Of a stretch of 64,000 nucleotides of DNA, positions 47,567-49,294 are shown in pieces. Numbering within the stretch: the stretch's first letter is position 1; the number at the start of each line of letters is the position of its first letter. The translations under genes and the position numbers were made by a program. The DNA lies in the sequence record PV682554.1, one strand, 5' to 3'. The notes beneath the pieces are model-generated. The model searched no databases and was not told the origin of the DNA. It saw nothing but the letters and a program-made list of their open reading frames with translations. The DNA comes from Escherichia phage 92CQ.

Positions 47567-47772
47567 TACCTAAATAAAGATGATAGCTTTTACCTATCAA
47601 AAACGTTCACCGAAAAAAGTGAATAGATCGCGGTATCGAGCTAATCAAGGAGCAGATGAACAACCATACCATGAAGATCATAAGGCGCTTACAACGTGTT
47701 TTAGACCGCTTATTTTTAATTTCTCAATGTAACTATCGGGCAAAAACAGCCTTTTTCTTGTCTTTCCTCTTA

Positions 47773-47847
47773 AATGATAATCATTCTTATTTATAGCTGA
47801 TTATTTATGCAATAAACTGCATAATGCAATAATGATAATCATTCTTA
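47773..47847. promoter_or_regulatory. two Fur-box-like sites (AATGATAATCATTCTTA x2)
   Basis: Copies at about 47773-47789 and 47831-47847. Confidence 0.45.
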
Positions 47848-48203
47848 ACTTATGACCATCTAACCTATAAAATAATAAGTTATCTAACTAAATTAAAGCT
47901 AATTATTTCACCTTTATTTATAACTTACTGTTACTATCTCATTGATAACCTTATATTAAACAACAATAACTAATATAAATCATTACTAAGCTAAATATAA
48001 TCTATCTAACCTTTAAAACTATAACTATAATCTATCGAATTGTTGCACAAAGTAACTATTAAATTGTTAGTAACATTACTAAATAACTAGTATCCTATCT
48101 ATTTATGATCTAACCTTTATCTTCCTATCTATTACCTAAGTAATCATTTCATACATAATCATTTCATACAACAACTATAACAAGAAATATAATTCGCAAG
48201 CGT

Positions 48204-48381
48204 ATCATTAGCAGCCTATGCCGGACACATAGGCGGCTAATAATAACGCAACTACACACCCCACATAATAACCATCACCGATAGTTATTATTTGTGCTTA
48301 TGTAGCTTGCAACAATTGCAAGCGCAACAATATACAAGGTATATTGTATCCCTTACATTGTTGCGGTGCGTTATTATTAGC
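48204..48381. other. nested inverted-repeat element (structured RNA or DNA cruciform candidate)
   Basis: 13-bp IR TTAGCAGCCTATG/CATAGGCGGCTAA; perfect 15-bp IR GCTAATAATAACGCA/TGCGTTATTATTAGC 116 bp apart, enclosing GCTTGCAA-CAA-TTGCAAGC and CGCAACAAT...ATTGTTGCG. Confidence 0.5.
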
Positions 48382-48720
48382 TAATGTTTGGAACATTGGC
48401 TATAATATAAGCTACATATAATAAGCTATTCAATAATAAACATCGTGAACAATGACATGAGTGAACAATGACACTGATGATCATAATGCGCCACCTTCCA
48501 GGGGGCGCTATGTGAACACAAAGAAATCTTTCTTGTCAAGAAAAATATCACTACTATTGCGCAAAATTATTTATATCTGAATAGATGATTTTTCATACTA
48601 TTGCCCCTATACACTACCTCATTTGTTGCGTATCCCTATTTGTTGAGCCTATTCTCTTAAAAGCGCAATAAATCAGAATTATCTTGATTTTTAGTGCGTT
48701 TTATAGTATAGAAAATATGC

Positions 48721-48737
48721 AAATGATAATCATTATC
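48721..48737. promoter_or_regulatory. Fur-box-like site (AAATGATAATCATTATC)
   Basis: 15 contiguous positions identical to the 3' part of the Fur consensus. Confidence 0.5.
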
Positions 48738-48903
48738 AGCTATCTTCCACGGGTGGCACTATTTCACGCCAGATCATTTCATTTGGCAAGGTGTAGATAG
48801 ATGTTTAGAAATGCCAAGCCATTGATTTACTTAGAATTTATCTGTTTTGTTGTGAGTAGTGCCTTTCTTGCTCAGAAAATAATCAAAAGTCTTATAAGTC
48901 ATT

Positions 48904-48936
48904 GAATGATAATGCAAATGATAATAATTCTCATTG
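48904..48936. promoter_or_regulatory. Fur-box-like site (GAATGATAATGCAAATGATAATAATTCTCATT)
   Basis: Two GATAAT hexamers plus ATTCTCATT half-site shared with the 37.3 kb cluster. Confidence 0.4.
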
Positions 48937-49294
48937 ATATTTGAGGGGGACGGTCGGCAGAAATCGGGGGGCGCTAAAAATCGCGTTAAGCACCTCTCGC
49001 AAGCGAGCAGTATTTTGCGGCAAGTTATTGATATTATTGACTTTACGCCTATGAAAAGGGGGTGTGTCGAAATAAATCGGGTATACCGGAAAATTTTTGT
49101 GGCATAGATATTTATTTGTCTATATTATGTACAAAGGGGTGTGTTAAAAATATTAGGTATATATAGAATAATTGATAGGGAAATCCTATACTAATTCCTC
49201 TATTAATGATGTTTCTAGGTTGCTGTTCTTGTAATAGATGAAAAGACGCTATATGATGTGTGGCATGAAACGTAAATTTATAAAGGAGTCTGAT

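Follow-up and report, generated by a model that had tools for sequence, protein, structure and literature searches.

A long stretch of DNA without recognizable genes in a phi92-like phage genome raises the question of what function would keep it there. The gap that we analyzed lies between positions 47526 and 49295 of a 64,000-nt stretch of Escherichia phage 92CQ (PV682554.1; one strand), hereafter the window, to which all coordinates refer. As judged by its sequence relatives, the window is from a phi92-like myovirus of the genus Justusliebigvirus, with E. coli as the host. The original prediction had described the gap as AT-rich and repeat-bearing, and had named an origin, a packaging signal, a terminal-repeat boundary and an array of middle or late promoters as functions that it might house. 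Our analysis bears out the terminal-repeat boundary: the gap is the terminal-repeat region already known from the annotation of phi92, and we consider it highly likely that it represents the junction of both physical ends of a linear, non-permuted phi92-like genome.

Database comparison revealed 77 phage records that match the gap and its flanks, with 47 extending over 80% or more of the query at an identity of 92-98%; nearly all are Justusliebigvirus, i.e. phi92-like myoviruses of ~146 kb, and scans of IMG/VR and metagenomes added few homologues (2, 4 and 6 loci). In the phi92 RefSeq record (NC_023693), the features PHI92_DTR-L (1-343) and PHI92_DTR-R (148270-148612) are identical copies of a direct terminal repeat (DTR), and they align to positions 48646-48988 of the window, giving a DTR of 343 bp. 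Record positions 1-556 of phi92 are 97% identical to the window, and the two phages agree in the length of the repeat, in its boundaries and in the flanking genes (gp248 to the left, the first early genes to the right); they differ in a few substitutions, in the gene content immediately right of the leader that follows the repeat, and in that the window holds a single repeat copy, as expected of a collapsed or rotated assembly. The flanks tell the same story, with the open reading frame (ORF) at 47067-47525, which stops at 47525 and leaves a conserved ORF-free interval of 47526-49295, being the homologue of gp248, the last gene in the phi92 record, while the genes rightward of the gap are counterparts of those that open that record. 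It follows that the phi92 genome, as published, has been linearised within this gap. In a second phage, BME3, a 342-bp DTR was determined by PhageTerm (PMC12210895), and this repeat, like those of phi92, maps to 48646-48988; the ends of the BME3 record together with its 'DTR-L' feature map onto 48646-49060. The records of five further phages begin at the base equivalent to 48646, and phage A150 has both boundary motifs, 342 bp apart. A non-permuted terminal redundancy of 459 bp, situated in a non-coding region, has been described for the rV5-like relative LL12 (PMC6658697). The assignment is thus carried by homology to the annotated phi92 repeat and by conservation of both boundaries.

According to this reading, the virion DNA would begin at 48646 and end at 48988, with the 343 bp present at both ends, and the DTR appears once in the window because the assembly joins both genome ends. 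The assembly would then read as a concatemer junction, comprising the unique right end (47526-48645), the repeat and the unique left end (from 48989). We surmise that the terminase would cut concatemers at two related sites, GTTG/AGC on the left and GTTA/AGC on the right (the slash marking the cut), and that the repeat would be duplicated during packaging by analogy with T7-type phages. Several points weigh against the assignment. The termini of this phage are placed by homology, those of phi92 are taken from the annotation of its record, and a shared start base may merely reflect that the other records were oriented to phi92. The record of BME3 is not clean, containing an extra duplication of 788 bp. 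The gap is also devoid of any sigma-70 promoter matching at least 10 of 12 consensus positions, vs. about 20 in the adjoining early block. Finally, the ends of the phiWec187 record (LC739536) share an identical 148-bp overlap that maps elsewhere, to 43754-43898 among the early genes, and the authors of that work describe their genomes as ending in terminal repeats; given its location inside early genes, we did not accept this overlap as a physical terminal repeat and read it as probably an assembly overlap. The ends of the 'alia' record (OZ035770) displayed no terminal repeat and did not map to the window.

Both cuts fall within the sequence GTTR/AGC, in the context TTTGTTG/AGCCTA on the left and CGCGTTA/AGCACC on the right. 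TGTTG/AGC and TCGCGTTA/AGCA are invariant in five genomes of different genera, as are TGTTGAGC and TCGCGTTAAGCA in Phapecoctavirus and Klebsiella relatives, despite an identity of ~70% elsewhere. Abutting the left boundary on the plus strand are units of ATTTGTTG (48622-48645; two here, one to five in relatives), the final unit of which stops exactly where the phi92 DTR starts. Spanning the right boundary (48988/48989) is a block at 48963-49008 that is invariant in 13 close relatives, with the core TCGCGTTAAGCA invariant in other genera as well, and we regard this block as a candidate site for recognition and cleavage by the terminase. The same block has a counterpart outside of phages: matches to the gap were found in 505 of the 5,426 complete E. 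coli genomes searched, and the ten matches listed are all located on 48963-49008. A perfect 40-nt copy of the right boundary is found in E. coli D7, in a non-coding part of an island (NZ_CP010150.1, 1189521-1202616; the copy at 18386-18425 of our extracted locus L038). This island is an integrative element of ~13 kb at a tRNA-Thr gene, adjoining proA, and encodes a tyrosine integrase, an O-like replication initiator and head-like, tape-measure-like and baseplate-like proteins, the last with 48.6% identity to a phi92-like phage protein. Among the ten island proteins scanned against PHROGs, none matched a terminase family. A 9-nt match to the left boundary (GTTGAGCCT) near the tRNA end of the island was judged to be due to chance (~0.1 expected).

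It has been shown that satellites mimic the packaging sites of their helpers (10.1101/2024.04.22.590561). Similar to P4, SaPIbov5, EfCIV583 and PLE, the D7 island has no recognisable terminase and carries a short exact copy of the packaging-site region of its presumed helper; in contrast to these elements, the copy spans the terminal-repeat boundary of a virulent myovirus, and the island also has genes for head-, tape-measure- and baseplate-like proteins. Because an island without a recognisable terminase copies the right boundary, the 40-46-nt block is suggested as a candidate terminase recognition site, and the D7-type island may be an undescribed satellite of phi92-like phages. In the literature on rV5- and phi92-like phages we found no known satellite, and the PICMI paper has nothing on pac sites. 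The packaging-signal option of the original prediction is thus supported indirectly, by boundaries that are conserved across genera and by the copying of one of them into an E. coli island.

The gap shows 95-100% identity across 12-13 Justusliebigvirus genomes, vs. 84-92% for the flanking genes on the left and 71-79% for those on the right, with its variable spots confined to three tandem-repeat sites (48131-48169, 48445-48473 and 48610-48645). Phapecoctavirus and Klebsiella relatives retain ~70% identity over the gap, and five islands (47500-47887, 48189-48327, 48638-48746, 48894-48997 and 49103-49197) are kept in other genera. The conservation of the gap and the retention of these islands indicate that it is functional non-coding DNA, and beyond the DTR itself the rest of the gap would constitute conserved control DNA rather than spacer. 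One may argue that such conservation reflects coding constraint on small protein genes hidden in the gap, namely a 34-aa hydrophobic ORF at 48801-48905 and a 46-aa ORF at 47656-47796. Both ORFs exist, a Shine-Dalgarno-like sequence is found upstream of 48801, and several automatic annotations place 4-11 small coding sequences in the gap; however, the 34-aa ORF is interrupted by premature stops in three close relatives (L024, KKE7M and AV123) and has no related counterpart in other genera despite conserved DNA, the ATG of the 46-aa ORF is replaced by ACG or TTG in other genera, and careful annotations (phi92, PATM, Paula and inny) have no coding sequence in the gap. We therefore rejected small coding genes on account of the premature stops and the unkept start codons, and consider this explanation very unlikely.

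Another alternative, that the repeats make up a phage-specific array of middle or late promoters with the AAAGGGGTGTGT motif reused upstream of late genes, concerns the leader to the right of the DTR. Positions 48989-49185 are conserved at 98-100%, with mosaic gene content beyond. On its plus strand, this leader harbors at 49052-49170 two copies of a ~35-nt module, RGGGGTGTY-N11/12-GGTATA (at 49058 and 49136), which include AAAGGGGTGTGT and are both kept in Phapecoctavirus and Klebsiella relatives. AAAGGGGTGTGT itself is located at 49133, and two further copies, at 49056 and 36841, deviate from it at a single position (3 in the window vs. 0.22 expected), these copies being conserved in all relatives; the copy at 36841, a third copy of AAAGGGGTGTG, lies in another non-coding gap extending from 36815 to ~37630. 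While this significant repetition ahead of a gene block is what a promoter array might show, GGGGTGTG has only three plus-strand copies in a whole related genome of 146 kb, all in the two large gaps and none upstream of other genes. As these three copies imply that the module is no general promoter for middle or late genes, the whole-genome count from the motif search that the original prediction had proposed led us to reject the promoter array, which we now regard as extremely improbable. The invariant leader of ~200 bp would probably carry the promoter(s) for the mosaic left-end early genes, with GTGTTA-N17-TAGAAT (49141-49169, plus strand), overlapping the second module copy, as a candidate early promoter.

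The other short direct repeats of the original prediction are present where it had placed them and occur above chance. ATCTAACCT is found at 47858, 48004 and 48108, and again at 32491 (4 in the window vs. 0.64 expected), with only the 7-mer ATCTAAC kept at these sites in relatives; a fourth ATCTAAC at 47882 brings the number to four copies within 260 bp, all on the plus strand. The two copies of GTGAACAATGACA (48445-48473, plus strand, at 48445 and 48461) vary from one to three among relatives, mostly one, with some having three, and phage A150 lacks the exact 13-mer; given this variation, the pair is a local, strain-variable tandem duplication. We view the listed short direct repeats as minor components of the gap architecture.

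To the left of the DTR, the gap comprises an AT-rich tract followed by a structured element, and it is here that the remaining proposals concerning origins and transcripts apply. The claim that the gap as a whole is AT-rich holds in part: 1-kb bins show a GC content of 0.33-0.34 vs. ~0.38 for the window, with a strong bias on the plus strand within 47750-48200. Within this tract (~47750-48200), GC content falls to 0.19-0.25 with 4.7% G on the plus strand, and GC skew reaches -0.4 to -0.7 at 47850-48190, the G-poor portion that contains four ATCTAAC copies, two copies of TCCTATCTATT and the 15-nt tandem repeat TAATCATTTCATACA (48131-48169; 2-4 copies in relatives). Other genera share this bias in composition but not the sequence, and the record of phage inny has a repeat_region annotated at this tract. 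Immediately downstream, at 48205-48402, is a multi-hairpin element of ~180 nt, consisting of a hairpin, a 15-bp closing stem (48236-48250/48367-48381) around three hairpins and one more hairpin. The nested inverted repeat noticed earlier is therefore real, with folding z-scores relative to shuffled sequences of -5.7 for plus-strand RNA, -7.6 for minus-strand RNA and -7.3 for DNA. The same architecture is found in 22 distinct homologues, and among 14 diverse ones 12 of the 48 pairs display compensatory changes with none broken. A search of Rfam did not assign the element to any family at the gathering threshold, and at E<=1 there were only two chance-level hits, elsewhere in the gap; likewise, scanning both the window and the gap for tRNAs and Rfam families yielded nothing. 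In all 22 homologues, the minus strand is 9-26 kcal/mol more stable than the plus strand, with 3-10 G-U pairs vs. 0-3. Based on this stability and the G-U asymmetry, the active form of the element would be a single strand of minus polarity, which could be either a leftward RNA or a set of minus-strand DNA hairpins.

If the element is a leftward non-coding RNA, it would be transcribed from a promoter at ~48433-48404 or from one inside the DTR at 48759-48732, the latter overlapped by a Fur-like site (box 3, below). Besides the strand preference and the covariation, this proposal is favored by the minus-strand promoter-like sites and by a G-rich minus strand over 47750-48650, akin to coding strands elsewhere in the genome; on the other hand, the candidate promoters match at only 9 of 12 positions and are situated in part where conservation is poor, the element has neither an intrinsic terminator downstream nor an Rfam family match, and G-T wobbles are tolerated in single-stranded DNA hairpins too, so the asymmetry is no proof of RNA. 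We hold the RNA to be a real contender that falls a little short of an even chance. A replication origin formed by the AT-rich tract and the hairpins together (47850-48402), in which a promoter feeds into DNA that melts readily and the minus-strand DNA hairpins help in priming, would be compatible with a role as terminal repeat. A GC content of 0.19-0.24 across ~350 bp is what one would expect of an AT-rich unwinding region, the conserved hairpins with pairing that favors one strand resemble single-strand initiation signals, motifs of the ATTAGC type recur (with many more copies in KP13-26), and the local cumulative GC skew turns at ~48650-48700. Set against these features, ATTAGC enrichment is modest, the cumulative GC skew over the whole genome reaches its extremes elsewhere and tracks gene orientation, and no gene for an origin-binding protein is adjacent; by reading the sequence, with no formal scan run, we did not recognise a DnaA-box-like sequence or a clear iteron array. 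We thus consider an origin at this location unlikely.

The Fur-like sites noted in the original prediction are found at 47770, 47828, 48719 and 48908-48938, with a weaker one at 48470, as scored against the 19-bp E. coli consensus GATAATGATAATCATTATC. In the left part of the gap (47770-47846), box 1 (47770-47788, 14/19) and box 2 (47828-47846, 16/19) accompany the palindrome TTATGCA-N6-TGCATAA, and all three are retained in other genera. Within the DTR, on the plus strand, a promoter-like TTGATT-N17-TATAGA is followed by box 3 (48719-48737, 17/19; the whole at 48683-48737). TTGATT with a 17-nt spacing to TAnnnn is conserved in four genera-level relatives, and box 3 is kept in three of the four, being displaced in KP13-26; the promoter-like element was called by reading the sequence and was missed by the promoter scan, its -10 hexamer not ending in T. 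Further right in the DTR (48903-48938, plus strand), a conserved -35-like TTGAAT (48903) precedes cluster 4, where overlapping sites at 48908, 48914 (15/19) and 48920 have a 6-bp spacing. Two Fur clusters thus lie inside the DTR, so each would occur twice per virion DNA. Among the 8-mers of the gap, the Fur-box cores AATGATAA and TAATCATT show the strongest over-representation, the window has four Fur matches with at most three mismatches vs. 0.08 expected, and the A150 genome has ten sites of at least 15/19 vs. ~1 expected, six of which are in its two large gaps. These sites hold their positions in genera that are ~70% identical. The other gap of the window has a comparable array at 37240-37380, with pairs 6 bp apart at 37251/37257, 37274/37280 and 37303/37309 and a site at 37327; upstream of this array, at 37030-37230, are three direct repeats of ~55 nt (TTATTTAAAGTTTTT...GAAAATGAAAAGTTCAA). 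Three units of ~37 nt (48468-48504, 48717-48753 and 48912-48948, spaced at 249 and 195 nt) each consist of a Fur-like box followed by ...TTCCAGGGG, ...TTCCACGGG or ...TTTGAGGGG, which suggests that the units arose by duplication. In phage pEC-M2929-1AR.1, the homologue of 48850-48905 carries, within the repeat, an inverted box 3 segment (the reverse complement of GCAAATGATAATCATTATCAGCTATCTTCCACGGGTGGCAC).

A 6-bp spacing is the architecture of footprinted clusters of Fur sites in E. coli (PMC2189734), and the phage sites resemble Fur-repressed E. coli promoters in this spacing, in matching up to 17 of 19 positions and in lying over or just downstream of -10-like hexamers; they differ in being located in the terminal repeat and the non-coding gaps of a virulent phage, with no iron-related gene downstream. 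Since the clusters in and left of the repeat overlap promoter-like elements, we propose that host Fur-Fe2+ would gate transcription leaving the repeat, with both binding and regulation at these sites predicted from the motifs. The palindromes could instead be operators of a phage-encoded regulator, or AT-rich palindromes with another role, as the core AATGATAATCATT is a simple palindrome and genes for predicted transcription regulators are located close to the left end of the phage genome. Given the 14-17/19 match to the E. coli consensus, the overlap of sites at a 6-bp spacing as in footprinted clusters, the excess and the gap preference in A150 and the positions kept in genera of only ~70% identity, we deem this alternative improbable and favor host Fur. 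In the literature, the Fur boxes that we encountered were all upstream of prophage cargo (the sit operon), with none in the termini of lytic or virulent phages; nor did we find a relevant transcriptome of this phage group.

As regards the immediate surroundings of the gap, the early block on its left does end, as predicted, in an intrinsic terminator on the plus strand (47541-47568; stem at 47541-47559, then a T-run), with a 7-bp stem comprising 6 G-C pairs, which is annotated in relatives, kept in other genera and situated at the right end of the virion DNA. It is followed by a conserved non-coding block at 47585-47770, without a conserved ORF, that is 99-100% identical in 12 Justusliebigvirus genomes and partially conserved in Phapecoctavirus and Klebsiella relatives. 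At the other side, where the next block had been predicted to begin at 49295, the first gene of the left genome end has a Shine-Dalgarno sequence, AAGGAG, at 49283-49288 and an ATG at 49296 (together 49283-49298, plus strand); annotated starts in relatives differ slightly, being equivalent to 49253 or 49265, and we consider 49296 the most likely start. The assertion that the gap is the longest non-coding stretch in the window is plausible, with the other gap (36815-38704) containing promoter-preceded small ORFs from ~37630. The region at 38000-47100 is a typical early-gene block at the right end of the virion DNA, in which ~20 strong sigma-70 promoters (TTGACA-N16/17-TAnnnT with A-rich DNA upstream), each followed by a conserved CACATAGG-like start region, precede small ORFs; promoters with this start region are absent from the gap. 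A match to the IHF consensus AATCAATGGCTTG on the minus strand (48815-48827) lies in a repeat block, TGCCAAnCCATTGAT, that is largely conserved across genera, and we treat it as a lead only, given that the nine matches in the window, two of them in the gap (the second at 49021-49033), represent a weak enrichment. Away from the gap, at 22752/22753, the window lacks ~16 kb that is present in phage A150 (62130-78274 of its reverse complement), a large indel between close relatives that is probably in the tail-fibre region.

The position of the DTR at 48646-48988 fixes the true gene order, with the block ending at 47525 as the right end of the genome and the block from 49296 as the left end; it also accounts for the non-coding nature of the largest gap and argues against calling small ORFs within it. 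In a broader and more tentative proposal, which we regard as possible but doubtful when all of its parts are taken together, the DTR would serve as an iron-sensing control hub, with an adjacent structured minus-strand element and a terminase site at the right boundary that is copied by a bacterial island. Host Fur would bind the clusters in and beside the DTR and the second array at 37250-37345, and would either gate the first transcripts from the genome ends or be titrated away as the phage DNA replicates, thereby turning on iron uptake of the host. The structured element would be an undescribed minus-strand RNA (or DNA) beside the DTR, and the widespread E. coli island (~9% of complete genomes) would copy the right boundary for packaging; if all of this holds true, the island would represent a new satellite family of virulent myoviruses. 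As far as we have searched the literature, the Fur clusters, the structured element and the island copying the right boundary are all undescribed. Three leads follow: iron-dependent control by Fur, or titration of Fur, in a virulent coliphage that is included in therapy cocktails; a new, strongly covarying structured element; and a candidate terminase sequence shared with a common E. coli island, which could reveal a satellite exploiting phi92-like therapeutic phages.

The organization of this region may be compared with two well-studied types of phage ends. In T7 and T3, short exact terminal repeats lie on a non-permuted genome and are found at the concatemer junction (Dunn and Studier 1983; Chung, Nardone and Hinkle 1990). 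The phi92-like gap shares with these phages a short exact end repeat on a non-permuted genome, arrays of short repeats beside it, early genes after the left repeat, and promoters together with an inverted-repeat or hairpin region near the right end; it differs in showing no sequence similarity, in belonging to a 146-kb myovirus rather than a T7-like podovirus, and in that duplication of the repeat is presumed from the analogy. The cos region of lambda, by comparison, comprises cosN, the R sites of cosB and the IHF site I1, with cohesive ends of 12 nt. As in lambda, an IHF consensus (49021-49033) and two copies of a repeated module (49058 and 49136) are found within ~150 bp beyond the right cut site, an arrangement resembling a binding array for the small terminase; unlike lambda, the ends are repeats of 343 bp, IHF matches are weakly enriched, and the module recurs in another gap and has no copy on the E. 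coli island.

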